Shown: positions 15,642 through 64,000, counted from the stretch's first letter. The stretch: 64,000 nt of DNA from a virus (IMGVR_UViG_3300033121_002101:132532-196531); one strand, 5' to 3'. Notes: generated by a model from the sequence alone, not told the origin. Program-made: numbers and translations.

Positions 15642-15733
15642 GGCCCTGTAGTTTAATGCAAAACCGATAGGCTTATACCCTATAACAGCGCCAGATTAGC
15701 GCCAGACTGTTGGTTCAAGTCCAACCGGGGTCA
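15642..15733 (+). tRNA. tRNA-Ile(UAU) with ~25 nt variable region
   Basis: GGCCCTG/CGGGGTC acceptor, ATAGG-CT-TAT-AC-CCTAT, GTTGG-TTCAAGT-CCAAC. Confidence 0.82.
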
Positions 15734-15904
15734 CTATGAATATTATTGAAAATATGATTCAAAATGCTTTGAAAGGCAATAAAAGAACGTATTACAAGTT
15801 ATTAAAGCTTGCAAGTGCGTTTGAAAATATGGGAGACGGTGAATCAATCACTGGAACTTATATTAGAAATGTGCTGTCTGGAAGTAATAATCTGAAAGTA
15901 GACA

Positions 15905-32622: not shown

Positions 32623-32829
32623 TTACTCTTCGTCTACGAAATCAGAATATTCATCTGAAGATACACTGACATGTTTGGCATGACGCTTGCGCTCACGCTT
32701 CTCTTGTAGCTCAGCTTCTTGCCACATAATGTCTGCCATCGTTTGATAGCCAGAATTGTAAAGCTCTTGTGCAGAAGCTCGAAGCACTTCAGCAGACCTA
32801 CGCTCAGTTAATTGATTCTTTAGCTGCAT
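32623..32829 (-). CDS. hypothetical protein (paralogue of 54482)
   Basis: LRASAQELYNSGYQTMA. Confidence 0.6.
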   Translation of the reverse strand: MQLKNQLTERRSAEVLRASAQELYNSGYQTMADIMWQEAELQEKRERKRHAKHVSVSSDEYSDFVDEE

Positions 32830-34768: not shown

Positions 34769-35215
34769 TCATAGAGGTCCTGTCATTCTTTCCAAGTTGC
34801 TTGGAATGATGTTGATGTTCCAAGTAACTTTTTTTGCAGATTGAAGCCCGCCATCAACATACACAGCACCAATTACAGCTTCGACTGCATCTGCAATCAT
34901 GTTGCGGTTATTGCTCAAGTTTGCATTCTTACCGAATGAGCTTCTAATATACTTTGGCAAATTGATATTTCTTGCAATGTCTGCAAGTCGCTCTGTGCGA
35001 ACAAGAGAAGCTCTAACAGTAGAAAGCCAACCTTCATCTCTGTTTGGATGGTAATTGAATAAAGCATCAGCGACTAGAATATCAAGAACAGAATCTCCAA
35101 GATATTCTAGTCGCTCATTGTTTGGCTTGCCAAGGCTTCTGTGTGTCAAAGCAAGACACAGATTGTCAATGTTATACCACCTATGGCCAAGCTGTTTGAT
35201 AAGCTCTGACAGCAT
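34769..35215 (-). CDS. rnc: ribonuclease III catalytic domain without dsRBD
   Basis: ALTHRS, NERLEYLGDSVL signature, EGWLSTVRASLV, ADAVEAVIGAVYVDGG; ends before a dsRBD. Confidence 0.92.
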   Translation of the reverse strand: MLSELIKQLGHRWYNIDNLCLALTHRSLGKPNNERLEYLGDSVLDILVADALFNYHPNRDEGWLSTVRASLVRTERLADIARNINLPKYIRSSFGKNANLSNNRNMIADAVEAVIGAVYVDGGLQSAKKVTWNINIIPSNLERMTGPL

Positions 35216-35216
35216 C

Positions 35217-35627
35217 TTAGTTACACTCGGTGATGATAGGCTTTGCGGAGGTCCAAGCAACAACATCTGCACCAGACATCACGTATGCACCAGCGAGAAT
35301 CTCAGTAACTTTATAACAATCGAATGATGCAGTATACATCATCTCATCATGACCAAGCTTATCGAAAAACAGTTTGCTATCGCGAAACAAACCAGCTTCA
35401 GAATTGACAAAAACATAAGACCTGACAACAAATCCACTGAGGTCAAGATCAAGTTTGACATCAACAGAAACATCTGCAACGAGTGGGTTTACACTGTGGT
35501 CTGCAGAAGTTACAACTGAAATACTGTCGACATGCTGCACAGCAGCATCAACATCTACATGATCATCTGCACCACCAGAACAAGCAGCTACGATAGAAGC
35601 AATAAAGAAAACATTGATGTTACGCAT
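35217..35627 (-). CDS. putative lipoprotein (paralogue of 51353)
   Basis: signal peptide with VAAC lipobox. Confidence 0.65.
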   Translation of the reverse strand: MRNINVFFIASIVAACSGGADDHVDVDAAVQHVDSISVVTSADHSVNPLVADVSVDVKLDLDLSGFVVRSYVFVNSEAGLFRDSKLFFDKLGHDEMMYTASFDCYKVTEILAGAYVMSGADVVAWTSAKPIITECN

Positions 35628-37583: not shown

Positions 37584-37669
37584 ATATCTTATAATCAACT
37601 TAATCTACTAGACTAAAACATCCACAATACCCACTGTAAAAGTGGGGTGGCGATGATTATAAGACATTG

Positions 37670-37751
37670 CTCCCAAGGCTGGACTCGAACCAACATTGAC
37701 CTTTCAATCCTCGGTTAACAGCCGAGTGCATTGCCATTATGCTACCTGGGA
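37670..37751 (-). tRNA. tRNA-Asn(GUU) with long variable arm
   Basis: TCCCAGG/CTTGGGA, CTCGG-CT-GTT-AA-CCGAG, V region GATTGAAAGGTCAAT, GGTTCGAGTC. Confidence 0.88.
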
Positions 37752-47621: not shown

Positions 47622-47978
47622 TTACTCATTACCGTGAATAAAAGCGATTAGCTCGCAGTCGGCTTCCTCCTCACCGTTACGATCGACAAACACCAAGTGA
47701 TGCCGACCCTGCGCACGAACAACATGCGAATTCATTCGAGCAGCGGTTTGAGTACAACCAACAGTGATGAAGACAGTTGGGTCATTTTCATTGCCGTCAA
47801 CAACGTAGACATCTTGCGAAGATCGAGTAACACTTGCATGCTTCTGAGCAGCATGAGGAATGATCATAGAGATGAGCATGATAACCTTGTTGAGCATCGT
47901 CTTTATCCTCTTGAATGCCATAATCAACCACTGTGATTTGTTATGGCATCCAATGGGATGCGTGAATGTCTCACGCAA
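47622..47978 (-). CDS. hypothetical protein, possibly exported
   Basis: hydrophobic N-terminal stretch. Confidence 0.55.
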   Translation of the reverse strand: MRETFTHPIGCHNKSQWLIMAFKRIKTMLNKVIMLISMIIPHAAQKHASVTRSSQDVYVVDGNENDPTVFITVGCTQTAARMNSHVVRAQGRHHLVFVDRNGEEEADCELIAFIHGNE

Positions 47979-50954: not shown

Positions 50955-51026
<72 letters not shown>

Positions 51027-51352
51027 GTACACAAACAACGCATGCAAAAACAAGATCAAACGTTGCGATTGCATGCAACGATACAAAGCTCACGCATTTT
51101 TCGCAAGACAGCTTCGCCACGAACAGATCGAACATTTTCGTACGATCTGTTAATTCGCTTTAAAAGTTCTGCTGGAGCCCAGCCTTTTGTAACAATTGCA
51201 GAATTAACAGAGTTAATCGCAGTTTCTCTTGTGCTTTTATTTCTCATTTTGTGAGTTCTTTCTGGAGTTCTGTGCTCCACAGATAAGACCAATGCAATCA
51301 TTGATCACATCTATGCAACACAAAAAAGCAGCAAGAAATTATTTTTTATTTC

Positions 51353-51805
51353 TTACTGGCCGGGGCACTCAGTTGACAAGGTCCCTTCGGCAAAATCCCA
51401 AGACCCAGTTGATGCATCAAACACGCTGACATCTGCCCAGACAAAAGTCTGTTTATAGCAGTTAAAGCGTGCAGCTACAGCAACACTGTCGACTTTCTGA
51501 CAATCGATAAACACAGTAGACGGCCTTGCATCTTGCCCGGCTTCACTGAGCACAGAGAGCACAGTATGCACAACAGCTGTGTTGCGATTGACACAAGAAA
51601 GCTTGATGAACGCAGTCACATCAACCGAATTGCTGCTCGGCAGATGTGACTCAACATCAACGTGCACATTCATCGGTACATTTGCAGCATCGACGCTTGG
51701 AGTTGAATCAACAACAGAATCAACTGCCGCATCACTGTATTGAGCGTCATCAATGTCAGCGCATGCAGTAGCTGCAATCACAAAAATCAAATACTTGTTA
51801 CGCAT
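51353..51805 (-). CDS. putative lipoprotein (paralogue of 35217)
   Basis: MRNKYLIFVIAATAC signal; DAAV, DC.KV, DV..., TEC shared. Confidence 0.65.
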   Translation of the reverse strand: MRNKYLIFVIAATACADIDDAQYSDAAVDSVVDSTPSVDAANVPMNVHVDVESHLPSSNSVDVTAFIKLSCVNRNTAVVHTVLSVLSEAGQDARPSTVFIDCQKVDSVAVAARFNCYKQTFVWADVSVFDASTGSWDFAEGTLSTECPGQ

Positions 51806-51937
51806 TTTTGTTTCCCTTATCTACCAGAACTTGGTGATGAAATGAACTGCAACATAGACAATTGCAATCCAAAAAAGCAACCAAACGCAAACAAACAAAA
51901 TGTGATCAAGACGCATTGTATTCTCCTTGTTTATTAA

Positions 51938-52004
51938 CTGAAAATCTATCTCTTTCTAGACATCATGCAAACAACAAAATGTCTAGAAAGAGATAGACTA
52001 TCAG
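51938..52004 (-). repeat. 19 bp perfect inverted repeat, H2-related hairpin
   Basis: TCTATCTCTTTCTAGACAT / ATGTCTAGAAAGAGATAGA. Confidence 0.7.
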
Positions 52005-52507
52005 TCCCAGTAGGACTTACTTAGGGCAATGGCTTCCCAGTTTGCAGCCATGTCGATATAGAAATCGACACTGTTTTTGGAGTACCCTTTGAAAGAATAC
52101 CACTCTGCCATAGCAAAGTAATACTCTTTCATGTCATCTTGACTGCACCACGGCCCTGGATACTTTGGCATTTTGAACTCCACCTTCTTCAACTGCTCAC
52201 CGTCGAAGCTGCGCCACTCGTGGAAGTCGCCCTTGTCGTTGTCGTTCAAGTTGTAGACCTGCATGCCTTGTGTGTCGGGATTCCCGCCGAACACCACGTT
52301 GAGCTCGATGGCATCCATGGTCTCGTCGTCCAGCTCGGCCAGTGACCTGAGCTCGCTGATCTGGTCCTCTGTCGCCCCGCACGCCAGGGCGTAGAACCCC
52401 ATGCAGCACATGCGACCATCGGTTGGGCGCAGCAGCATTGACCCGCGGTGATTCCCTCTGAACCACTTCGACCTGACAACCGTGAACTCTGTTGCTTTCT
52501 TGATCAT
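52001..52507 (-). CDS. hypothetical protein, compositionally mosaic
   Basis: GSMLL...GRMCCMGF...QVYNLND; GC-rich 5' two-thirds, AT-rich 3' third. Confidence 0.7.
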   Translation of the reverse strand: MIKKATEFTVVRSKWFRGNHRGSMLLRPTDGRMCCMGFYALACGATEDQISELRSLAELDDETMDAIELNVVFGGNPDTQGMQVYNLNDNDKGDFHEWRSFDGEQLKKVEFKMPKYPGPWCSQDDMKEYYFAMAEWYSFKGYSKNSVDFYIDMAANWEAIALSKSYWD

Positions 52508-52541
52508 CGTATTATCCTTGTTTCTCGAGTGTAGCCAAGTG

Positions 52542-52649
52542 ACAGCCAAGAGATGGCTTGTGGGAGTTTGCGAAAACAGCCACCATGAAAATGAGCTGGC
52601 TCCGATGACCTTCTAGCCACCAGCATCCCACAAGCCATCTCTTGGCTGT
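52542..52649. repeat. 24 bp perfect inverted repeat with 60 nt spacer
   Basis: ACAGCCAAGAGATGGCTTGTGGGA (52542-52565) / TCCCACAAGCCATCTCTTGGCTGT (52626-52649). Confidence 0.85.
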
Positions 52650-52691
52650 TGGACAAGCATGTTGTCCAGCCGAGGCACCAAAAGAAGAAAT

Positions 52692-53282
52692 TTACTTCCT
52701 CTTGTAGACAAACAGACTGTCACGAATGCTATCCCATCTAGGGATATCAACAACCTCAGTACACTCCCATTCATCTCTGAGTAGACTGAAGAACTGATCA
52801 TCACCAGTACAACCACCCCAGCTCTCACCGATGTAGATGAGAGTGTTACCCTTGTATGCAGTAAGAGCATTATAGGCAAAGGGATCATCGTAGCATGGCC
52901 AGCAGAGCATCAGAGCATGCTTGCCGCCACTGTAGTACTGGAGGACAGAGGTATCACCCACTGCCACATCAGTCCACATCGTTTCGAACTCGTAGCCACA
53001 CACGTTCATCTTCGTTGTCGGATCCTTGTCGTAAGCTTCGACAACGATACCACGAGAACGAAGCAAGTAGGCCCAGTAACCAGCGCCAGCTCCCAGTTCA
53101 ACGATCGGACCGTACTTCGCGATCGTATCGAGTGCCTCGTTGTTTGGAATGGCCCATGAGAACTTCTTGACGCACATCTCTCGTGCTCTGAGCCGAGCAA
53201 GAGCACTTCCGGGCTCTCGCCAATCACGATTGCCACCATCGACAGCTTGCCAAGTGTAGATGTACTCGTTGATGACGCTCAT
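52692..53282 (-). CDS. class I SAM-dependent methyltransferase-like protein
   Basis: FSWAIP, IVELGAGAGYWA, LMLCWP, IYIGE...CTG. Confidence 0.72.
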   Translation of the reverse strand: MSVINEYIYTWQAVDGGNRDWREPGSALARLRAREMCVKKFSWAIPNNEALDTIAKYGPIVELGAGAGYWAYLLRSRGIVVEAYDKDPTTKMNVCGYEFETMWTDVAVGDTSVLQYYSGGKHALMLCWPCYDDPFAYNALTAYKGNTLIYIGESWGGCTGDDQFFSLLRDEWECTEVVDIPRWDSIRDSLFVYKRK

Positions 53283-53411
53283 TGCTTTATCTCACTCCTT
53301 CTGGAGTACCATACTCCATACAACATTCTAACTTTCGCTAGACTGCTCTATGCAGTACGATCTTGTGCGGGCAAACAACATCTTTATTGTTTGCTACATG
53401 CCAGTCAGAAC

Positions 53412-53678
53412 CTAGTTGAACTTCATTGAGTTGGCCTCACGCCAACAATCAATGACATACTTTGCTTTCTTGATAGAACATCCGCAACGCATACGGTATG
53501 CTCTTACTGCATTTACCAACTGATAGCTCTTCAGCATTTCAATCTCCATGCTGTTGAGCTCTTGGCACAATGACTGAACGTGAGCTTCACATGCATCAGC
53601 GATCATCTCAGCATCGGCTGAGCTGAGCGTCTTGACGTATGCCAGCACCATTTCGATCGTGATCATTTTAACACTCAT
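53412..53678 (-). CDS. hypothetical protein with L7/L12 C-terminal-like motif
   Basis: VNAVRAYR...GCSIKKAKYVID. Confidence 0.55.
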   Translation of the reverse strand: MSVKMITIEMVLAYVKTLSSADAEMIADACEAHVQSLCQELNSMEIEMLKSYQLVNAVRAYRMRCGCSIKKAKYVIDCWREANSMKFN

Positions 53679-53917
53679 TCTTTCTGGAGCAACATACTCC
53701 TTGCAATCGTCCAGCCACTATGAGCTGGAAAATTTCAAGCATTATGTTCTCTCTGGGATTCTTGCTGCGCAAGGGTCTGAACGATAACGCTCCGACGGCG
53801 CAAGTGAGTAGTTTCGAGGGCGCGGGGGGAAATGGAAAAAGCTCCGCGTCTACGTCTATTTCCGAGAATCCTTCCGCGGAAGTCAAAACGCCCCTCTGCT
53901 CACAATCCGAGGGCTTT

Positions 53918-54358
53918 CTAGCCCTCTTCACTGATCTTCAGCGACGCGACGAACGATTGACGCTCGTACTTGGTCACTTGTCGCATAAGCTCTGGCAGTC
54001 CGAACTCTGCGCGGAGCTCATCGATCTCTCGAGCTCTGCGGAGTACATGGTCGCCGGGCTTCGGCTTGTCTGGCATCGAGGCGATCTCCATCTCGATCTT
54101 GTCTTCCATCAAGCACAGTTGCTGCTCAACGAAGTCAGCTGCTCTGTCAGACAGCTTCAATCGAGGACTCTCGTCCTTCACGATGCAGTGTGTTGGCGGA
54201 GGCAGATGCCGTAGCTCAGTGCAGCCCTTCGACAGTGCATTCCACGACAACACGTGCAGATTCCGTGGATCGAAGTGCGTTGCTTCCTTGTGCAAGAACA
54301 ACCGAGGCTGGTCTGCACGCAGCTCTTCGACAGGAATGACGATGTACTTGTCTTTCAT
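53918..54358 (-). CDS. hypothetical protein
   Basis: follows H1 cassette; AGGAG RBS. Confidence 0.7.
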   Translation of the reverse strand: MKDKYIVIPVEELRADQPRLFLHKEATHFDPRNLHVLSWNALSKGCTELRHLPPPTHCIVKDESPRLKLSDRAADFVEQQLCLMEDKIEMEIASMPDKPKPGDHVLRRAREIDELRAEFGLPELMRQVTKYERQSFVASLKISEEG

Positions 54359-54481
54359 TTCTATTCGCTCCTTCTAGAGCTCTATGCTCCATAGGCAAGA
54401 CCAGCATTTCTACTGATCAAGTCTATGCAGCATGCCACCGTCACCAGTGGCAAACCGCATGCCGTTCGTGATCCAGTTGCT

Positions 54482-54640
54482 CTAGCTGCGGAGCATGTGC
54501 TGCTTGCCCTTGCGCACGATGCTGGCGCTCTCCTCAGCACACTGCGCCAGCGTCTTGTAGCCAGCGGCAGCCAGCTCTTTGGCATCGGCCTCGAGCTGCG
54601 TAACGGTCGGCTTCACGATCAGGTACTTGCGCATCATCAT
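54482..54640 (-). CDS. small hypothetical protein (paralogue of 32623)
   Basis: LEADAKELAAAGYKTLA; follows H1 cassette. Confidence 0.65.
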   Translation of the reverse strand: MMMRKYLIVKPTVTQLEADAKELAAAGYKTLAQCAEESASIVRKGKQHMLRS

Positions 54641-54736
54641 TGGAGTGTATCTTCTTTCTGGAGCTCCATGCTCCATACAACGTTCCAACATTCCGTTGAA
54701 CCGTTCTATGCAACTCAGAACTCTCTCTTCTGCTGC

Positions 54737-54982
54737 TCAACCAGCGTTGTTCTTCTGCAGCAGCAGACCGAGGCCCATCACGATGTGGCGCAGATCGAGC
54801 ACCATCTGCTCCGAACCGCTTCGGAACATCAGATCGACGCTGTAGTTGCAGACCTCAAGGGCCAGCACACAACAATCATCGAATTGCTGCAGACGATGGC
54901 TGATCTCATCGTGCAGCTCGGTGATCCGAGCCAGTTCGCTGTCGTCCAGACGCTCGGCTAGCGGCAGGTTTTCGTTGCTCAC
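54737..54982 (-). CDS. hypothetical protein
   Basis: GTG start overlaps stop of micro-ORF (GTGA). Confidence 0.6.
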   Translation of the reverse strand: MSNENLPLAERLDDSELARITELHDEISHRLQQFDDCCVLALEVCNYSVDLMFRSGSEQMVLDLRHIVMGLGLLLQKNNAG

Positions 54983-55032
54983 TTGCGCGCTCCGAAGAGC
55001 AGCTTGAGCCACATGCGCTTGAGAGGGGTCAT
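54979..55032 (-). CDS. 17 aa micropeptide MTPLKRMWLKLLFGARK
   Basis: follows H1 cassette; paralogue of 56211-56273. Confidence 0.65.
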   Translation of the reverse strand: MTPLKRMWLKLLFGARK

Positions 55033-55127
55033 TTTACTCGTACCTTTCCGGAGCTCTATGCTCCATGCAACGTTCCAACGTTCACCGTTGAACCGCTCCA
55101 TGCAACACGTAACTCAGAAGCAACTCT

Positions 55128-55292
55128 TCAGCCAAGTGCTTCTAGATCTGCAACAATGCGGTCCAGATCTGCTTCTGTCACATCATCACGATCGTTGCGT
55201 GCGATGTGGACAGCCTCACGACAGAAGCGCTTGGCCTCAGCAAGCTTCCAGCGCAGCACTTTGATCTCGTCTTCTGTGCTGTTCTTCTTCAT
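55128..55292 (-). CDS. small hypothetical protein
   Basis: ATG just after previous stop. Confidence 0.6.
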   Translation of the reverse strand: MKKNSTEDEIKVLRWKLAEAKRFCREAVHIARNDRDDVTEADLDRIVADLEALG

Positions 55293-55297
55293 CTCTT

Positions 55298-55531
55298 TCA
55301 CTGGTGCTGCGGGTCTTGCGGATCGATGCGACCATCCATCTGCCACGGCTTCTGCCACTCGAGCTCGAGCAGCTTCCACGCCATCTCGTCGTGCGCCGTG
55401 ATGCCGACGATCTTCGTCGTCTTCGATCTGCCATCGGGCAGAGTGCAGGTGACCGTGACGCTGGGATCCTCGACCACCTCGTCGGAAGCGGTCGGATCGA
55501 ACTTCACACCACTGAGCTGAGTGAGCTTCAC
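55298..55531 (-). CDS. hypothetical protein
   Basis: follows H1 cassette; AGGAG RBS, GTG start. Confidence 0.65.
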   Translation of the reverse strand: MKLTQLSGVKFDPTASDEVVEDPSVTVTCTLPDGRSKTTKIVGITAHDEMAWKLLELEWQKPWQMDGRIDPQDPQHQ

Positions 55532-55625
55532 AGAGATTCTCCTTCAGGACATGCCATATGTCCCACAGGCTACTCAAAGAGATGGTCACCTTGAGTAGTC
55601 TGGGGGCCACACGGGCCACGCCACC

Positions 55626-55763
55626 CTACCACACGCACTGGAAGCAGAGGCGAGGATGCTGGGCAGCGATTCGACTGGCCTTGATGAGCTTGTCGAGCCG
55701 GCGCTTCGCTTCGTACCTCGTGATCTCGAACGAACGGATGACGAAGGTCTTGCTCATGTCCAT
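55626..55763 (-). CDS. small basic hypothetical protein
   Basis: follows H1 cassette; AGGAG RBS. Confidence 0.6.
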   Translation of the reverse strand: MDMSKTFVIRSFEITRYEAKRRLDKLIKASRIAAQHPRLCFQCVW

Positions 55764-55862
55764 GGCTGCTCTGTCTCCTTTCAGGACACGAATGTATCCC
55801 ACAGGCAATCTGAAGAATCAAATCTTCAGACAGTCTGGGCGACACACTCACCCGCCAGCGCT

Positions 55863-56111
55863 CTACTCGCTGCAGTCAGCCGCCTTGTTGTGCCAGGCGA
55901 ATTCCACTGCCGCCTTGAGCGCAGCCTTCTGATTGCTGCTGACGTTCCCACAGATGAAGACCTCGGTCGGGTAGCCATCAGCACCCGTGGTCTTCTTGTA
56001 CAGCTCCCACGAGTACGTCATGGTGTTCAGCCCCCTGATGCGGATCTCGTACTTCGAGATCACGAAGTGGATGTCGATGTACTCAACGTACTGAACTTGT
56101 GCGGTGCTCAT
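55863..56111 (-). CDS. hypothetical protein
   Basis: follows H1 cassette. Confidence 0.65.
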   Translation of the reverse strand: MSTAQVQYVEYIDIHFVISKYEIRIRGLNTMTYSWELYKKTTGADGYPTEVFICGNVSSNQKAALKAAVEFAWHNKAADCSE

Positions 56112-56210
56112 CGCTCTCGCTCAAACTTTCTGGGATTGTTTTGGTCCCATAGAAAGCACGATGTTTAGTCGTGCTTTCTGTGCGGCCAACCATCTCAGTG
56201 GCTTCTGCTG

Positions 56211-56273
56211 CTATCGCTTGGTGCCGAAGAGCAGTCGAAGCCAGAACCGGCGAAGCGGAGTGTGCATCTTCAT
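56211..56273 (-). CDS. 20 aa micropeptide MKMHTPLRRFWLRLLFGTKR
   Basis: GAGGAG RBS; paralogue of 54979-55032. Confidence 0.65.
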   Translation of the reverse strand: MKMHTPLRRFWLRLLFGTKR

Positions 56274-56362
56274 GTCAGTCTCTCCTCACGTTCTTCTCCC
56301 TGTCGATCGAGCGACTAACATTAGTCGCTAAACCGATCGGGCAAGCCCGAGAGTATCCAGCC

Positions 56363-56863
56363 CTACCACACGCTCATGACGAACATGTAGTCGCTGTCGC
56401 TCATGCACGAGGCGGGACGGTCGGCCTCGCGCTCGAGCTCGAGCTCGGCGAGCCAGAGCTCCTCCTGCTCCTTCATCGCCTCGTACATGTCGGCCTCGGC
56501 GCTGTCCCAGGCGATGCGCTCCTCGCGCTCCTCATGCTCATTCATCGCCTCGAGTTGTTCGATGAAGTAATCCTCTTCGACAGACGTCATATCGAACGTC
56601 TCGAACCCGCGGGGGAAGAGGTCGGCGAACAGCAAGGACCGCGACCACTTGATCCGGCCGTGCGCGTAGCTGGTCGGCACCTTCGCCCGCGGCGGGTCGA
56701 GGAGCTGCGGCACGTCGCTGCAGTCGTCGCCGTCACCCAAGCGGGCGAGCTGCTTGCCGTACTGTCGAACGGCCTTGTTGTACTGCTTCGTGACGATCTT
56801 CTTCGCCCGCGGGAACAGCTCCCCGGCGTTCAGATCGCTGTGATACTTCGCGATGCCCTTCAT
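56363..56863 (-). CDS. hypothetical protein, basic N-half and acidic C-half
   Basis: follows H1 cassette; GC-rich codons. Confidence 0.7.
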   Translation of the reverse strand: MKGIAKYHSDLNAGELFPRAKKIVTKQYNKAVRQYGKQLARLGDGDDCSDVPQLLDPPRAKVPTSYAHGRIKWSRSLLFADLFPRGFETFDMTSVEEDYFIEQLEAMNEHEEREERIAWDSAEADMYEAMKEQEELWLAELELEREADRPASCMSDSDYMFVMSVW

Positions 56864-56991
56864 CGGCAGTCTCTTTCTGGGACGATGTATCCCACAGGCT
56901 GTCTGAAGAGTCGCCTCCTCAGGCAGTCTGGGGGTCACACCCCGAGTCGCTCATCCTCTCGGCTTGCTCGCTCGGTCCTGCAACCGCTCGT

Positions 56992-57555
56992 TCACTCCGC
57001 GGCGGGGGCGGTCAGGGCCTCGAGCTCGGCGTCCGAGAGGTCGTCACCGATGGCCGGCTCGTCGGCGACCGGCTCGCTCTGGGTCTCGCTCGGGTGCTCC
57101 TCCGACTGGGCGGCCGCGGAGGCGACCGACTGGGCGCGCAGGGAGGCGATCGCGGAGGCGAGGCTGGGCGCCGGCCCCTTCGAACCCCGGGTGCGGGAGG
57201 AGGCGCCCGGCCGCGTGGTGGCGGTCACCGAGTTGAGGGCGGTGATCGCCTTGCTCAGCCAGTCGGCCGAGACCTTGCGGAGGTCGACCCGGACGGACAC
57301 GTTGCCGTTCTCCCCGGGCTCGAGCACCTTGGCGGCGTCGGCCGGGACCTCGAGGCCCATGGCCTTGAGCTCGTCGAGCCCGCCCCAGGCCCAGCCCGAC
57401 AGGTCGGCGTGCGTGCACACGTCGGACTTGTTGGGCTTGGCGACGTACAGCTTGGCGCCCTTGGGCCCGACGAGCTGCATGTACTGCTTGTTCTCGATGG
57501 CCTGGACGGTGGCGGGGGCCGAGACGATGGCGGTGGCGATGGCGGTGGTCTTCAT
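56992..57555 (-). CDS. hypothetical protein, dispersed family A, very GC-rich codons
   Basis: GAGG RBS; ENKQYMQLVGPKGAKLYVAK...HADLSGW. Confidence 0.78.
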   Translation of the reverse strand: MKTTAIATAIVSAPATVQAIENKQYMQLVGPKGAKLYVAKPNKSDVCTHADLSGWAWGGLDELKAMGLEVPADAAKVLEPGENGNVSVRVDLRKVSADWLSKAITALNSVTATTRPGASSRTRGSKGPAPSLASAIASLRAQSVASAAAQSEEHPSETQSEPVADEPAIGDDLSDAELEALTAPAAE

Positions 57556-57649
57556 GGTCTTTTCCTCACAAGGCGGTTGTTGGGCGCAGCTCTAGTCTCA
57601 CGGCACACCTCTTGCGGGCTGCTCGAGGTCTAAGTACTGTGAGCGCTAA

Positions 57650-57870
57650 ATCCCCAATTATAAGGCAACCGCCTTATAATAATATAATATACTTGAATTG
57701 TGACCTGAATGTCACATGAAAAAATATAATTTCACGTGTCGGAAATGTCACATGAAAAAATATATTTCATGTACCGGGTTCATGTGAAAGTCACTTGAAC
57801 AGAAACTTCGCTTAACCCTCGCGCGAGACGAGGCCCATTTTTCACGTACAGTTTTATTTAAATAAACTTC
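57650..57870. promoter_or_regulatory. AT-rich non-coding control region with palindromes and a 21 bp direct repeat
   Basis: ATTATAAGGC-aacc-GCCTTATAAT (57657-57680); AATGTCACATGAAAAAATATA at 57708 and 57744. Confidence 0.65.
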
Positions 57871-57877
57871 AAGTAAA

Positions 57878-58141
57878 CTAGAGAAGGTCCTTGGTGAGCC
57901 CATAAAGCCTAATATAGGCGTCAGTATGACGTTCAGCATATGGCAAAGCTATGCTACGCGCAGCATGTGACATACCTTCTATTGCTAGACGAGCTTGTTC
58001 ATCTGTTATTTCACTCTTAGCTAGCTTATCACTTATACAGAAACAGCAAATTCCATTGTGATCAGCGCCGCCAGGGTAGTAGATGCATTCTCCAGTGTGC
58101 ATATAATCTCTCTCTATTCTATCGTTTCGTGGGTACATCAC
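57878..58141 (-). CDS. hypothetical protein
   Basis: coupled ORF. Confidence 0.55.
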   Translation of the reverse strand: MMYPRNDRIERDYMHTGECIYYPGGADHNGICCFCISDKLAKSEITDEQARLAIEGMSHAARSIALPYAERHTDAYIRLYGLTKDLL

Positions 58142-58377
58142 AGTGTATTAGAATGTGCACCCTTCCAAGTGAAACTGAATGATAGACACATCCATCCTAG
58201 TAGTGCTTCGATGCACATTATCTTGTTCAATCGAGAATCTCCATATGTAGATCCTGTAGAGCCTTGTTCAATTGAAAAACCCAGACCGAAACGTTTTACG
58301 CCACCAAATGGATGCGCAGTTTTCAACTGTACATAAACATTCCTATCTTCACCCAAATGTATCAATTTTTCATACAT
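58138..58377 (-). CDS. hypothetical protein
   Basis: coupled ORF. Confidence 0.55.
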   Translation of the reverse strand: MYEKLIHLGEDRNVYVQLKTAHPFGGVKRFGLGFSIEQGSTGSTYGDSRLNKIMCIEALLGWMCLSFSFTWKGAHSNTL

Positions 58378-59321
58378 CAGCCAATGCTCCGCGGAATGGG
58401 TACATCATACAGCTCAAACAAGCTGTCAGTATTACACAGTGGCATTCTCTGTTTCCTTAACCACATTGGTATAAGCAGAGCAGCGACAATACCCTTATCT
58501 GGTGGTTTTTCATATTCCTTACGAATCGCAAGCAACAATGAAATCTCAGAATCTTTGATGGCAAATTCTGCGGCGTTATTGTTTTGTTTCGATTCACTTA
58601 CATGATTTGCAATCGATTTTTGCAAAAGAGAAATTTTTCCAGTAAATGAACGCTGCGTTCTGCATTTGAATGCATTTGGAGAAATATAGACTTGTTCCAA
58701 ACTTAATCCAAGATACAAATGATTCATTCCGCAAGAACAGATGGCCGCATAGTCATCACAATTTAGTTTTGCAAGATCTCTTATTTCATCGTCATGCGCA
58801 TACCGATACTCAGGAGAATTTTTGTTTGCTTGCTCTCTTTTCTGATTATTTTCTGTATGCACAATATTCTTCTGACTGTTCATAAGATCGGTAATTCGTT
58901 TCTTTAAATCACCGACATTTCCACACCAGGATATCGGCGTTTTGCATTTGCATGTAGCGCCGCCTCCGAATGAAACTTCTTCAATATATTTTCCAGAATA
59001 CGAATGATTCATTCCGCAAGAGCAAACTGAAATATACGAATTATCTCTTAGCAAAGAAATACTTCTCATATCGTCTGTGTATGGATACCGATATAACACT
59101 AGACTCTGCAGATCACGAACCGTTCCTACCCAAGAACTTTCTGTTTTGCATTTGAACGGTGATCTTGTTTCCAACACGCACAAAATATCTTCTTTTCCGG
59201 GATTACAAAATGAATGATTCATTCCGCAAGAGCAAATTGCGACGTATTCATCATTTGGTAAAGCAGTTAATGACCTTACGTCATCTAGGCCTGGAAACCG
59301 ATAATCTGTAAAGAAGTTCAT
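58377..59321 (-). CDS. protein with three CSCGMNH repeat domains
   Basis: YR...DD.R....L..D.Y...CSCGMNH...KC.T..S..G x3. Confidence 0.75.
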   Translation of the reverse strand: MNFFTDYRFPGLDDVRSLTALPNDEYVAICSCGMNHSFCNPGKEDILCVLETRSPFKCKTESSWVGTVRDLQSLVLYRYPYTDDMRSISLLRDNSYISVCSCGMNHSYSGKYIEEVSFGGGATCKCKTPISWCGNVGDLKKRITDLMNSQKNIVHTENNQKREQANKNSPEYRYAHDDEIRDLAKLNCDDYAAICSCGMNHLYLGLSLEQVYISPNAFKCRTQRSFTGKISLLQKSIANHVSESKQNNNAAEFAIKDSEISLLLAIRKEYEKPPDKGIVAALLIPMWLRKQRMPLCNTDSLFELYDVPIPRSIG

Positions 59322-59330
59322 TGTTTCCTC

Positions 59331-59690
59331 TTAAATGATCGTTACCATGTGCTGGCCGTTGTGAAGTGTCGATAGATGAAACCACTCACCATTTGCATTG
59401 TTGAAGTTTTCATCTAGAAACTTTTTGATTTCACCACCAATCAGCACTTGATCTTCATCAATTGTAAGCCAGCCTGGATTCCGCATTTCTTCGAATTCAA
59501 ATGCTTGACAACATCTGTAAAGAGAATGCGCAAGTATATTCCAGTATTTTACTACCCAGTGTTTTGAAACATAACTTGTAATATCTTTTGCCATGTTTTC
59601 TAGAATTCTCTGCCCAAGCATACTAAAATCGTTATCGCCGAACACGATCAAAACATCTGGTATTCTCTGAATTTCTTGAACTTCTTTCAT
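59331..59690 (-). CDS. hypothetical protein
   Basis: FGDNDF motif. Confidence 0.65.
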   Translation of the reverse strand: MKEVQEIQRIPDVLIVFGDNDFSMLGQRILENMAKDITSYVSKHWVVKYWNILAHSLYRCCQAFEFEEMRNPGWLTIDEDQVLIGGEIKKFLDENFNNANGEWFHLSTLHNGQHMVTII

Positions 59691-59742
59691 TTTGCACTCT
59701 CTTTTTGCACGAAATGTAACTCAGAGTTTCATATTGTAAATT

Positions 59743-60418: not shown

Positions 60419-60655
60419 TTAGTAAATCCGAGCTCCGCAATCTTCGCATTCACTGTGACTATAACCGCCGCCAGCGTAACCAGGATCATAGTGTTTTGTT
60501 TTCTTATCATGATTACACATTGATTGATTTGCTTTATCAAGCCCTTCTAATGCTGACATCATTGCTTTTAATTTTTTAAATGCAATTTTTATTTCTTCAC
60601 GATTTTTTGTAACATTTTCTGGAGACAAATCTATATCTGGAATCTCTGCTTTCAT
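60419..60655 (-). CDS. hypothetical Zn-ribbon protein
   Basis: CNH...CEDCG. Confidence 0.6.
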   Translation of the reverse strand: MKAEIPDIDLSPENVTKNREEIKIAFKKLKAMMSALEGLDKANQSMCNHDKKTKHYDPGYAGGGYSHSECEDCGARIY

Positions 60656-61574: not shown

Positions 61575-62984
61575 TCACTTGCCCACCGTCCCGTCGCAGC
61601 TGCCGGTGTGCCCTTTGGCGAGAGCGCACGGTGGCCCCTGGTCCCCGCGGCGCGTGTCCTTGCCGCACACCTCGGGCGTCACGGGGATGCCCGCGGCGGT
61701 GAGAGTGGCGCGCATGGCGGCGACGCGCGGCTTGCGATGGCTGTTTAGGATGCAGTCCCAGCCGAACAGCTCGCCGCCGACCTCGTACACCGCATCCGAT
61801 GCCGCGTTCTGGTAGTCGCGCGCCACCGCCTCGGGATCCACCGGCGCGACCAGCGTCGCCTCGAGGCGGGCGAGGACGGCGCGGATGCCGTTGCGGTCGC
61901 TGCTGTCGATCGGTGGACACTGCTCGCCGTGGTCGATGCCGTCCGTTCCGACGACGTAGAACAGGCGGATCAGCTCATCCTCGCTCACCCCCGCGAACAC
62001 CGGGTGGGCGGGCGGCGACGTGGGCGGGGCGCCGAGGGAGGCGAGGGCGCGGATCATGGCATCGACGCGAATCGGTCGCTGCGCCTCCGGGAAATGATCG
62101 AAGCTGGAGTTCGGGATCGCCGCGTAGTATGCGCGGCACAGCTCCTCGGCTCGGTCCTGCGCTGGCAGCGTGACGGGGCCAAGGTGAGCAAACACCTTGC
62201 GCGCCAGCCCCGCATGCCCGTGCGCGTCGAGCGCCGCCGATAGCCTCGCCTCGTCCAGCACCGGCCGGGCTTCGAGCTCGGCGACGCGGGTGGTGAGGCG
62301 CGTCTCCTCACGCCACAGCCGCGCTGCCTCGCGCTCCCATAGCTCGGCGCACTCGCGGGCGTTGCGCGGCACGATGCCGTCGGGGCCAACCTGGCGGCTG
62401 GCCAATGCGATATCGCACGAGCCGTTGCATGGGGTGCGGCTCCGCTCGTTCGCGGCCTGCTCCAGCCCGGCGATCCGGGTGCGGCACGCGGCGAAGTGGG
62501 CGCGTTCGGAGGCGAGGTCGGCAGCGAGCATGCCGATTCGCTCGACGGGTTGCAGGGCGCGACCACCGTCACGCAGCGCCACTGAGCCATAGCGAGCGGC
62601 GTCATCGTCGGCGTACGGCACTACGTCAGGAACGCCGGCATCACGCAGCGCGTTCCGCACGCCAGTCAGCATCGAGTCGTATCGGTCGACATGCGCGCGC
62701 AGGACTGACACCTCATCGGCGTGCGTCTGTGCGGCTACGGCGATTCCAGAGCTGACGTCGCGGCGAAACTCGTCGAGCTTGGCGCGCACCTCGGCAAGCT
62801 GCGCGGTCATCTCGTCACGCCGCGCATGCAACGTCGCGCACAGGTCCAGCGCCGCGCCGAGCAGCTCCCGGACGGCCGACGGGGCGGCCTCGTCGAGCAG
62901 CGCGTCGAGCACGTCGAGCCGGTGCCGGTCGTGGGCGGCGCAGGCGGTGGCAAGGGAGGCGGTGATTGTTGGGTCGGTCATCAT
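61575..62984 (-). CDS. GC-rich hypothetical coiled-coil protein
   Basis: GAGG RBS before ATG 62984; ORF track extension to 63239 overlaps the next gene. Confidence 0.7.
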   Translation of the reverse strand: MMTDPTITASLATACAAHDRHRLDVLDALLDEAAPSAVRELLGAALDLCATLHARRDEMTAQLAEVRAKLDEFRRDVSSGIAVAAQTHADEVSVLRAHVDRYDSMLTGVRNALRDAGVPDVVPYADDDAARYGSVALRDGGRALQPVERIGMLAADLASERAHFAACRTRIAGLEQAANERSRTPCNGSCDIALASRQVGPDGIVPRNARECAELWEREAARLWREETRLTTRVAELEARPVLDEARLSAALDAHGHAGLARKVFAHLGPVTLPAQDRAEELCRAYYAAIPNSSFDHFPEAQRPIRVDAMIRALASLGAPPTSPPAHPVFAGVSEDELIRLFYVVGTDGIDHGEQCPPIDSSDRNGIRAVLARLEATLVAPVDPEAVARDYQNAASDAVYEVGGELFGWDCILNSHRKPRVAAMRATLTAAGIPVTPEVCGKDTRRGDQGPPCALAKGHTGSCDGTVGK

Positions 62985-63009
62985 GGTTCCTCGTCGGTGG
63001 GGTAGGTGT

Positions 63010-64000
63010 TCAGGTTCGTGCCTGCATCGCTCGCAGTGATGCAGGCGCGATCCCGTAGGTCCAGGCGTTGGCGGCGAGCGCCGTTGTGAACTCGGGCGGC
63101 ACCGGCAGCGCGAAGTGACGCCCGGTCGCGCACCGGACGCGCACGAAGCGGCTGCCCGGCGCGCCGGGCAGGTCGACCTCGACGAGCGTTCCGATCTGTG
63201 GGTCGGCGTCTTCGTCAATCGTCCGCGCGCCCAGTTCACTGAGCGCGGCGTCCCATCCGATGATCTCCATCCCGGCGCGTCGCTGCTCGACGTTCGTGAC
63301 GGCGATCACCTCACGCGCGGTCGGTTTCGGACCGATGATCCAGTGCGCCGGCACTGTCACGCCGTGCCAGTGGTACAGCGACCATCCGTCGCGCCACGCG
63401 AGCGACGGTCCGTCGGCGCAGTGCGGGCGGCACTCCTCGTCGCGGTTGATCACCGTCGGGAAGTCCGACACGAGGCAGAACTTGGCGTGCATGTAGCGTG
63501 GACCGCCCTCGATCGCCGCGCGCTCCCACCACTGATACTTGTCGTGTTGGGGCAGGCGCAGGCCGAGGACGTCACGCGCGGCGGTGAGGTAGCTATCGTA
63601 CTGCGCCCAGAACGCGCCGCCCTGGTACGCCGAGTACCAGCCGGATACCGCTTCGAGCATCGCGGCTGCGGGCGCGCCCGTATCACGCTCGATCTCGAAG
63701 GCAATCAGGCGAGCCCATCCTGGCGCCAAGTCGTAGGTGGCGTCGGCGGCGGCGGTGGCGTCGCTGGTGGCGGAGTAGGTGGCGTCGCGGGTGGCGTTGA
63801 GGGTGGCGACGTCGGTGGCGACGGCGGTGGCGGAGTAGGTGGCGTCGCGGGTGGCGTTGAGGGTGGCGTTGAGGGTGGCGACGTCGGTGGCGGAGTAGGT
63901 GGCGTCGCGGGTGGCGTTGCGGGTGGCGGAGTAGGTGGCGTCGCGGGTGGCGTTGCGGGTGGCGACGTCGGTGGCGGGGTAGGTGGCGTCGCGGGTGGCG
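63010..64000 (-). CDS. DUF6745-like protein with N-terminal ATxx tetrapeptide repeats (5' end outside window)
   Basis: RPHCADGPSLAWRDGWSLYHWHGV.VP, NVEQRR..MEIIG, VRCATGR.FALPVPP, AWTYG; frame open to window edge. Confidence 0.75.
   Translation of the reverse strand, partial: ATRDATYPATDVATRNATRDATYSATRNATRDATYSATDVATLNATLNATRDATYSATAVATDVATLNATRDATYSATSDATAAADATYDLAPGWARLIAFEIERDTGAPAAAMLEAVSGWYSAYQGGAFWAQYDSYLTAARDVLGLRLPQHDKYQWWERAAIEGGPRYMHAKFCLVSDFPTVINRDEECRPHCADGPSLAWRDGWSLYHWHGVTVPAHWIIGPKPTAREVIAVTNVEQRRAGMEIIGWDAALSELGARTIDEDADPQIGTLVEVDLPGAPGSRFVRVRCATGRHFALPVPPEFTTALAANAWTYGIAPASLRAMQART
63735..64000. repeat. imperfect 12 bp coding tandem repeat
   Basis: GGTGGCG+5 nt units encoding ATRD/ATYS/ATLN/ATDV/ATRN on - strand. 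Confidence 0.9.

Follow-up and report, generated by a model that had tools for sequence, protein, structure and literature searches.

Cowe and Sharp in 1991 and Kunisawa in 1992 reportedly dealt with the codon usage of early versus late genes of phage T4 and with the transfer RNAs (tRNAs) of T4, and acquired islands are said to decay towards the composition of their recipient, the 'amelioration' of Lawrence and Ochman in 1997. Time-of-expression codon usage has also been the subject of a comparative study of 14 phages (PMC5683454), and AT-rich T4-like cyanomyoviruses have been described with tRNAs whose AT-rich anticodons serve translation in GC-rich Synechococcus (PMC3152331). Moreover, T4-type phages contain PeSL cassettes, an early promoter plus stem-loop involved in modular gene shuffling (PMC2839356, PMC4122927). 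It is debated what phages carry tRNAs for and to what extent such tRNAs make a phage independent of the codon usage of its host. Here we describe a codon-usage ramp in a stretch of viral DNA of 64,000 nucleotides (IMGVR_UViG_3300033121_002101:132532-196531), hereafter the window, in which 13 small minus-strand genes between 57555 and 51056, counted from its first letter, grade from G/C-ending to A/T-ending codons in an otherwise AT-rich phage genome. With a probability of roughly one half we ascribe this ramp to graded selection for host-readable codons in what would be an immediate-early operon, a selection that weakens the further a gene lies from the promoter, as far as the tRNA genes.

A Gene-by-Gene Gradient of Codon Usage

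At 51 kb of the window the GC content is about 0.40; it reaches 0.75 at 57.0-57.4 kb and then drops to about 0.41 inside some 300 bases, between 57.4 and 57.7 kb. Codon-phase plots place an excess of G/C in the third positions of minus-strand frames. Thirteen consecutive small genes were curated by hand on this strand, with the periodicity of the frame, the start codon and the ribosome-binding site as criteria. They are given below, numbered from 57555, with their lengths in amino acids (aa) and the GC content of their third codon positions (GC3; GC1 and GC2 for first and second positions).

56992-57555 (-), gene 1: 187 aa, GC3 0.99, GC1 0.67, GC2 0.53
56363-56863 (-), gene 2: 166 aa, GC3 0.92, orphan, strain-variable
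55863-56111 (-), gene 3: 82 aa, GC3 0.84, rich in I, Y, K and N
55626-55763 (-), gene 4: 45 aa, GC3 0.84, AGGAG ribosome-binding site, called in strain contigs too
55298-55531 (-), gene 5: 77 aa, GC3 0.83
54737-55012 (-), gene 6: 81-91 aa, GC3 0.70-0.75
54482-54640 (-), gene 7: 52 aa, GC3 0.87
53918-54358 (-), gene 8: 146 aa, GC3 0.68
53412-53678 (-), gene 9: 88 aa, GC3 0.56
52692-53282 (-), gene 10: 196 aa, GC3 0.56, phage protein family phrog_19090
52001-52507 (-), gene 11: 168 aa, GC3 0.75, the one clear outlier of the ramp, no cassette upstream
51353-51805 (-), gene 12: 150 aa, GC3 0.43, N-terminus lipoprotein-like by eye
51056-51247 (-), gene 13: 63 aa, GC3 0.30, the last cassette copy ahead of it
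47622-47978 (-), ramp-tail gene: 118 aa, GC3 0.48, its orthologue in GC-rich relatives lying shortly after gene 1 with GC3 0.97

The original prediction, made from the sequence of the window, had claimed just such a ramp from GC-rich first genes, and the claim is borne out: GC3 falls from 0.99 to 0.30 over the 13 genes (0.70 for gene 6 in this series) and correlates with position with a Spearman rho of 0.88 (p 7e-5), or of 0.87 over 25 genes (p 2e-8). A tail with GC3 of 0.3-0.48 reaches about 47.6 kb. The genome-wide median GC3 is 0.26, and values above 0.5 are found genome-wide only in the genes of two GC-rich islands, namely the GC-rich part of the ramp (island A) and island B described below, four evident artefacts aside (shadow open reading frames (ORFs) opposite to island B, a single short one and another over tRNA genes). 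The share of the codons AAA, AGA, ATA and TTA, proposed as a check together with GC3 per gene, follows the ramp as well, with 0-0.04 in the first 12 genes as compared to typically 0.05-0.15 in AT-rich early genes.

Does the gradient concern codons or merely base composition? In genes 2-7 AAG outnumbers AAA by 32:1, ATC, ATT and ATA occur 23:0:0 times, TTC and TTT 16:0, CGN and AGA 27:1, and none of 47 leucine codons is TTA. GAT is still common (GAC:GAT 20:15), which indicates that avoidance varies by codon family and does not follow GC content alone. Among the remaining A/T-ending codons of genes 1-7, those ending in A are rarer than those ending in T (20:63, as compared to a proportion of 0.42 A in the early background, p 8e-4). 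The encoded amino acids tell a different story. The share of G+A+R+P is 0.23 in genes 2-7, 0.18 in the small-gene background of the phage and 0.36 in comparison genes of similar GC3 taken from GC-rich phages; the share of F+Y+M+I+N+K is 0.24, 0.32 and 0.14, and K/(K+R) is 0.52, 0.63 and 0.21, respectively. Genes 2-7 differ from the GC-rich set in each of the three measures (p <1e-6). Codons and amino-acid make-up are thus decoupled in these genes, the latter being nearer to the AT-rich background.

A second indication comes from the late capsid gene, surely the most expressed late gene. In two-fold codon families this gene uses C at 0.64 and G at 0.58, where the late block has 0.29 and 0.23, suggesting that G/C-ending codons are favoured in the phage generally and in its host. 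Genes 1-7 go beyond the capsid gene (C 0.80, G 0.90), which makes expression level alone hard to invoke and fits a tRNA pool that changes once phage tRNAs appear.

Phage tRNAs and the Avoided Codons

50954-51026 (-), tRNA-Lys(UUU): first of 18 tRNA genes downstream on the strand

The phage has 25 tRNA genes, almost all for readers of A-ending codons, with four copies for Lys(UUU) and two each for Ile(UAU), Arg(UCU) and Leu(UAA). These tRNAs read codons that the phage uses heavily: in the background AAA makes up 72% of Lys codons, AGA 66% of Arg, ATA 38% of Ile and TTA 28% of Leu codons. The codons avoided in the ramp are those read by the multi-copy tRNAs. A set of readers for A-ending codons fits a GC-rich host, and a GC-rich host would also be expected from the GC-rich relatives of the phage, the probable donors of island B and the codon preference of the capsid gene. 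That the tRNA genes begin at 51026, as originally stated, holds for the tRNA-Lys(UUU) found there, but the strand has three more tRNA genes further upstream, for Ala, Ser and Gln, at genome 4.8-6.1 kb. ARAGORN also reports two unusually long tRNA genes, one for tRNA-Ile(UAU) of 93 nt and one for tRNA-Asn(GUU) of 83 nt (15642-15734, 37669-37751).

Integrity and Map of the Genome

The window takes up the final 64 kb of a viral contig of 196,531 bases that was assembled from a metagenome and is estimated to be 96% complete; the GC content of the genome is about 35%. The phage recurs in samples of wastewater, sludge and estuary. The genome encodes a T4-type major capsid protein that is at most 36% identical to that of any deposited phage genome, and nothing in the deposited-phage collection matched the island, a stretch of 20 kb next to it, a 733-aa protein or gene 1 when these were searched for as DNA and protein. 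A record of this kind, ending moreover in a tandem repeat, could in principle contain host or other GC-rich reads misjoined into a phage contig. However, independent studies of wastewater and estuary yielded contigs of about 99% identity for 54868-57876, 55050-57875 and 57427-59734, one identical contig covers 50998-61848, and six more strain contigs from other runs contain the control region with gene 1 or gene 2. The ramp region is therefore real DNA, and its sharp boundary at 57.6 kb is bridged by contigs of independent studies. Since the same junctions were assembled independently, one family of cassettes runs across both GC-rich and AT-rich genes, and relatives keep the control region and the gene order, a chimeric assembly has next to no chance of being the explanation. 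Runs X2, X3 and X6 cover 51.8-54.3 kb and island B thinly, and nothing was concluded from these gaps; nor is a joint of 51283 to 54705 at cassette copies in an X3 contig relied on, as it has 27 letters on its shorter side.

The contig starts and ends with the same 12-nt tandem repeat, and one ORF with homology on both sides crosses the junction, indicating that the map is circular or circularly permuted and has no fixed ends here. The idea that the GC-rich island represents the first-injected end of the genome was set aside for these reasons.

A Shared Control Region and GC-Rich Relatives

57556-57880 (-), AT-rich early control region: hairpin, tandem promoters, palindromic boxes, hairpin overlapping TATAAT

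Upstream of gene 1 a promoter scan predicts three or four tandem sigma-70-like promoters between 57788 and 57676 (TTCACA/GTGACA, 17-18 nt, TATATT) that fit 9-10 of 12 consensus positions, a match to the sigma-70 consensus only. The control region also holds palindromic boxes, TCACATGA/TCATGTGA. The promoter motif is unique to the control region in the 196-kb genome and the TTTCATGTGAC box is so within the window. In five GC-rich contigs (66-74% GC) the sequence upstream of the gene-1 homologues can be aligned with this region as DNA, including the hairpins and the palindromic TCACATGA boxes, and the predicted tandem promoters are conserved in all five. A 16-nt control-region motif tried as a search probe proved too unspecific (116 loci, 0 with companion motifs).

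The homologues of gene 1 behind this control region are 35-42% identical to it in protein sequence and all have a GC3 of 0.99-1.0. A search of IMG/VR with gene 1, alone or as family alignment, gave no relative, and a metagenome scan with gene 1 gave one further locus. The predicted model has a folded N-terminal domain (AlphaFold predicted local distance difference test, pLDDT, 84-91 for residues 1-115) and a disordered acidic tail; compared with the PDB it shows no fold match.

The direction of change can be read from the capsid protein. In the capsid tree the phage is sister to a GC-rich contig (L005, about 58% GC) and nested within a clade of capsid GC3 0.76-0.97; its own capsid gene has a GC3 of 0.37 as compared to 0.81 in L005, at 82% amino-acid identity. 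This nesting shows that the AT-richness of the phage is derived and that synonymous sites elsewhere in the genome have fully turned over. A neutral relic of the GC-rich past is thereby excluded for a gene 1 that keeps a GC3 of 0.99 at 35-42% identity, leaving selection or recent import. Another view is offered by relative G001 (IMGVR_UViG_3300018089_000001; 185 kb, 66% GC), which is collinear with the phage over about 130 kb; to 25-64 kb of the window it shows no homology at all. In four-fold codon families the preference between C and G shows no clear correlation to that of G001. This relative has 43 tRNA genes at 154.8-165.6 kb, with G/C-rich and A/T-rich anticodons alike, and the contrast with the 25 of the phage, almost all for readers of A-ending codons, suggests that the set of tRNAs was reshaped together with the base composition.

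The early region is matched by two contigs of GC-rich relatives. One (L035) has homologues of 60419-60655, gene 1 and 47622-47978 in the same order as the phage, and in another (L153) gene 1 and 47622-47978 are arranged likewise. Synteny and the shared control region indicate that the GC-rich first gene is native to the lineage. Nativeness had originally been argued from paralogues across the GC-rich and AT-rich zones, and this argument did not stand: by BLASTP genes 1-11 have no paralogue in the AT-rich zone, a weak match of gene 7 to ORF 32623-32829 (GC3 0.37) aside, and only gene 12 has a solid one (35217-35627 (-), 34% identity). In those GC-rich relatives that were examined, no counterpart of genes 2-11 was found. 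In the genes ahead of the shared control region, L035 (1-2200) has 52-57% GC and GC3 of 0.63-0.82 where it has 70-77% GC elsewhere, and one gene there is homologous to 60419-60655; this composition hints that early modules have passed between members of the family that are AT-rich and members that are GC-rich.

Leader Cassettes and Gene Turnover Between Strains

51255-56945 (-), leader cassette: ten copies of about 90 nt, ahead of each of genes 2-10 and of gene 13 (nhmmer scan)

In each cassette a long hairpin is combined with a short one (GGAGC/GCTCC) and with a ribosome-binding site, and the conserved blocks TGCATAGA and TATGGAGC are about 30 nt apart. The cassette is found nowhere else in the genome, nor in the GC-rich relatives examined. 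The consensus fold of the long hairpin shows compensatory changes in 18 of 20 pairs. A promoter scan found no sigma-70-like site inside any copy, and the cassettes look more like sites of RNA processing or stabilization. An RNase III catalytic-domain protein of 167 aa without double-stranded-RNA-binding domain is encoded at 34769-35272 (-) (Pfam E 9e-30), amid tRNA genes and downstream of many long intergenic hairpins on the same strand.

Strains of the phage differ by whole genes at these cassettes. In contigs L155-L157 and L159, from several independent runs, 56873 is joined directly to 56135, cassette to cassette, and gene 2 is absent, whereas L154 has it. Between genes 5 and 6, L155 alone contains an extra gene of 81 aa that has a cassette of its own (L155:2329-2777). 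Since the breakpoints of these insertions and deletions fall inside cassettes, genes are shuffled here much as with the T4-type PeSL cassettes (PMC4122927). The extra gene has a GC3 of 0.78 between neighbours of 0.82 and 0.75, suggesting that GC3 tracks position and not age of arrival.

Import, Base Composition or Codons?

61575-64000 (-), island B: 71% GC, abrupt edges, continuing over the contig junction into genome 1-1050

What imported DNA looks like in this phage can be seen in island B. It encodes a 469-aa orphan, a DUF6745 protein and a 115-aa protein, the latter two forming a pair that is syntenic, at 60-84% amino-acid identity, with contigs of 69-70% GC carrying the phage recombination genes RecT and RusA. 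Its amino-acid make-up is typical of GC-rich genomes. With foreign composition and homologues in donor-like genomes, island B is an ordinary import from GC-rich prophage-like elements and separate from the ramp. A scan of genome contigs with an island B protein gave only 48-52% matches, in a Roseibium genome and a deltaproteobacterial metagenome-assembled genome, and named no host. The 12-nt tandem repeat array at the contig ends (63685-64000, genome 1-330) encodes A-T-x-x tetrapeptides inside the DUF6745 protein, whose homologues in GC-rich phage-like contigs are devoid of the array; as the assembly broke there, it does not fix the copy number.

Could the ramp have arisen in a similar way? 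GC-rich genes might have come from GC-rich relatives or other phages rich in GC by recombination at the control region and by cassette insertion, the newest lying next to the promoter and older ones having drifted further towards AT. The control region is indeed common to relatives of 58-69% GC nearly base for base, gene 1 resembles its homologues in GC-rich phages in GC1, GC2, GC3 and amino acids, genes bounded by cassettes are gained and lost between strains, island B shows that the phage imports GC-rich DNA, and spacers show the same gradient. However, such decay predicts that GC3 falls first and amino acids of the GC-rich type stay, and genes 2-11 show the opposite, with high GC3 and amino acids nearer to the recipient. 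The extra gene of L155 has the GC3 of its position, not that of a fresh GC-rich import. Genes 2-11 and the cassette, moreover, are absent from the GC-rich relatives examined. In a search of 5.8 billion proteins genes 1 and 2 have no close match beyond the phage's own strains, that is, no donor homologue was found for the two genes searched. Import followed by decay is thus unlikely as the origin of the ramp.

Alternatively, GC content of DNA or mRNA could itself be selected, third positions being merely the freest sites. H-NS, MvaT, Lsr2 and MucR-type silencers bind AT-rich foreign DNA, and a genome of 35% GC would stand out to AT-binding proteins on entering a GC-rich host; escape from such silencing, from AT/AU-preferring nucleases, or stability of early mRNA might each favour GC. 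A gradient common to spacers and cassettes, as well as a gene 1 that is GC-rich at all codon positions, would be accounted for. Less easily explained are spacers of only 0.5-0.6 GC where the adjoining third positions reach 0.84-0.99, an avoidance specific to codon families that tolerates GAT and leaves TTT, ATT, AAA and ATA nearly absent, the same codon preference in the late capsid gene, and a promoter region that is still AT-rich. Selection on GC content itself is accordingly quite improbable.

Finally, GC-biased recombination or repair, or a local mutational bias, might be centred on the control region and the cassettes and fade with distance. The gradient is smooth, starts from one point and includes non-coding DNA, and the region is actively recombining. 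Such a bias, however, should lift spacers like third positions and all codon families alike, and neither is seen. As the sequence upstream of the control region, at 57.9-61.2 kb, is rich in AT, the effect would also have to be one-directional. We consider this explanation very unlikely.

Graded Selection in a Putative Immediate-Early Operon

How would graded selection for host-readable codons produce the ramp? The stretch of 51.3-57.6 kb may be the phage's own immediate-early operon, probably driven by the conserved cluster of predicted host-type (sigma-70-like) promoters at 57.7 kb.

51320-51358 (-), terminator-like hairpin and T run: directly after gene 12

This hairpin at 51.33 kb may close the operon and is a possible end of the immediate-early unit, with a weak folding z-score of only -1.5. 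The genome of this phage from a GC-rich clade has drifted to 35% GC while carrying 25 tRNA genes. Proteins made before the phage tRNAs build up would depend on the tRNA pool of a GC-rich host alone, and where translation is limited to this pool, selection is proposed to hold third positions at G/C. Such selection would be strongest on the promoter-proximal genes, which would be made earliest and in the largest amounts, and would relax with distance, leaving a ramp that runs out at the start of the phage tRNA genes. The original prediction went further and saw in the ramp a translation-level timing of gene expression; we prefer to see in it a trace left by graded selection, as a role in timing is not proven.

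A broader scenario is possible, which we put forward tentatively and at odds clearly below even. A tRNA set for A-ending codons may have freed the lineage from host codon usage, whereupon the genome drifted from about 60-65% to 35% GC, with the immediate-early operon, which would be translated before there are phage tRNAs, as a graded refuge of host-like codons. In that case the ramp would record in space the speed at which decoding is taken over, and would build a translational delay into the downstream genes.

Several observations weigh against host-readable codons being kept by graded selection. The operon is preceded on its own strand by AT-rich early genes (57.9-61.2 kb) and by the three tRNA genes mentioned above, so that not every gene of the early strand is protected and the rule would be local to the operon. 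The GC content of non-coding spacers grades from 0.62 to 0.33, shallower than that of the genes, and that of the cassettes from 0.60 to 0.41 down the ramp. Tuning to a host tRNA pool, as originally proposed, finds support in the third-position-specific excess, the decoupling from amino acids and the match between avoided codons and multi-copy tRNAs, but given the gradient in spacers and cassettes a pure tRNA explanation is incomplete, and some effect at the level of DNA or RNA acts as well. Gene 11, with a GC3 of 0.75, departs from the monotonic trend. A GC3 of 0.99 amid an AT-biased background requires unusually strong selection on synonymous sites, and gene 1, being GC-rich at every codon position and in its amino acids, could be a recent import. 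Furthermore, the strain-specific gene that matches its position is a single case, and the models of the small ORFs are hand-made.

Other Features of the Early Region

Pfam and PHROGs searches with the genes of island A gave no informative family, with phrog_19090 as the single exception. Gene 12 and its paralogue have signal-peptide-like N-termini with Cys and may be lipoproteins. At 58377-59321 (-) a 314-aa protein is encoded that is made of three internal repeats. In each repeat a C-S-C-G-M-N-H motif precedes another pair of Cys; the protein looks like a zinc binder and has no Pfam match.

Comparison With Known Systems

The phage offers an internal control within one genome that is AT-rich except for the first operon behind a host-type promoter, while its sister phages are GC-rich. 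If graded selection is the right reading, the ramp would be a testable case of a tRNA supply that changes during infection and shapes genome composition, and would provide a sequence-only way of spotting immediate-early genes and guessing host GC content in uncultured tRNA-rich phages.

The cassettes are like PeSL in that a repeated intergenic stem-loop with ribosome-binding site and start codon precedes small orphan genes in a hyperplastic early region, and in that the gene insertions and deletions by which close strains differ have their breakpoints within the cassettes. Unlike PeSL, they are devoid of a sigma-70 promoter consensus and have a long covarying RNA hairpin as their core. Amelioration resembles the present case in so far as a block deviates in composition, and island B fits it well. 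In island A, by contrast, third positions stay GC-rich while amino acids have moved towards the recipient, and genes are syntenic with those of relatives. Like the AT-rich cyanomyoviruses, the phage is a low-GC myovirus with tRNAs for A/T-ending codons and an apparently higher-GC host (PMC3152331); in the parts of that account consulted, neither a GC-rich early operon resembling the host nor a ramp by position was found mentioned, and the present lineage is distant from the cyanomyoviruses, as its capsid identity of at most 36% to any deposited phage genome indicates. As in T4 and the 14 phages, early and late genes differ in synonymous codons in a way tied to the host tRNA pool and the phage tRNAs. 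In those studies, however, the differences are modest and lie between temporal classes, whereas here GC3 runs from 0.99 to 0.30 gene by gene within one operon, with other genes at about 0.26, and GC-rich sister phages give the direction of change.

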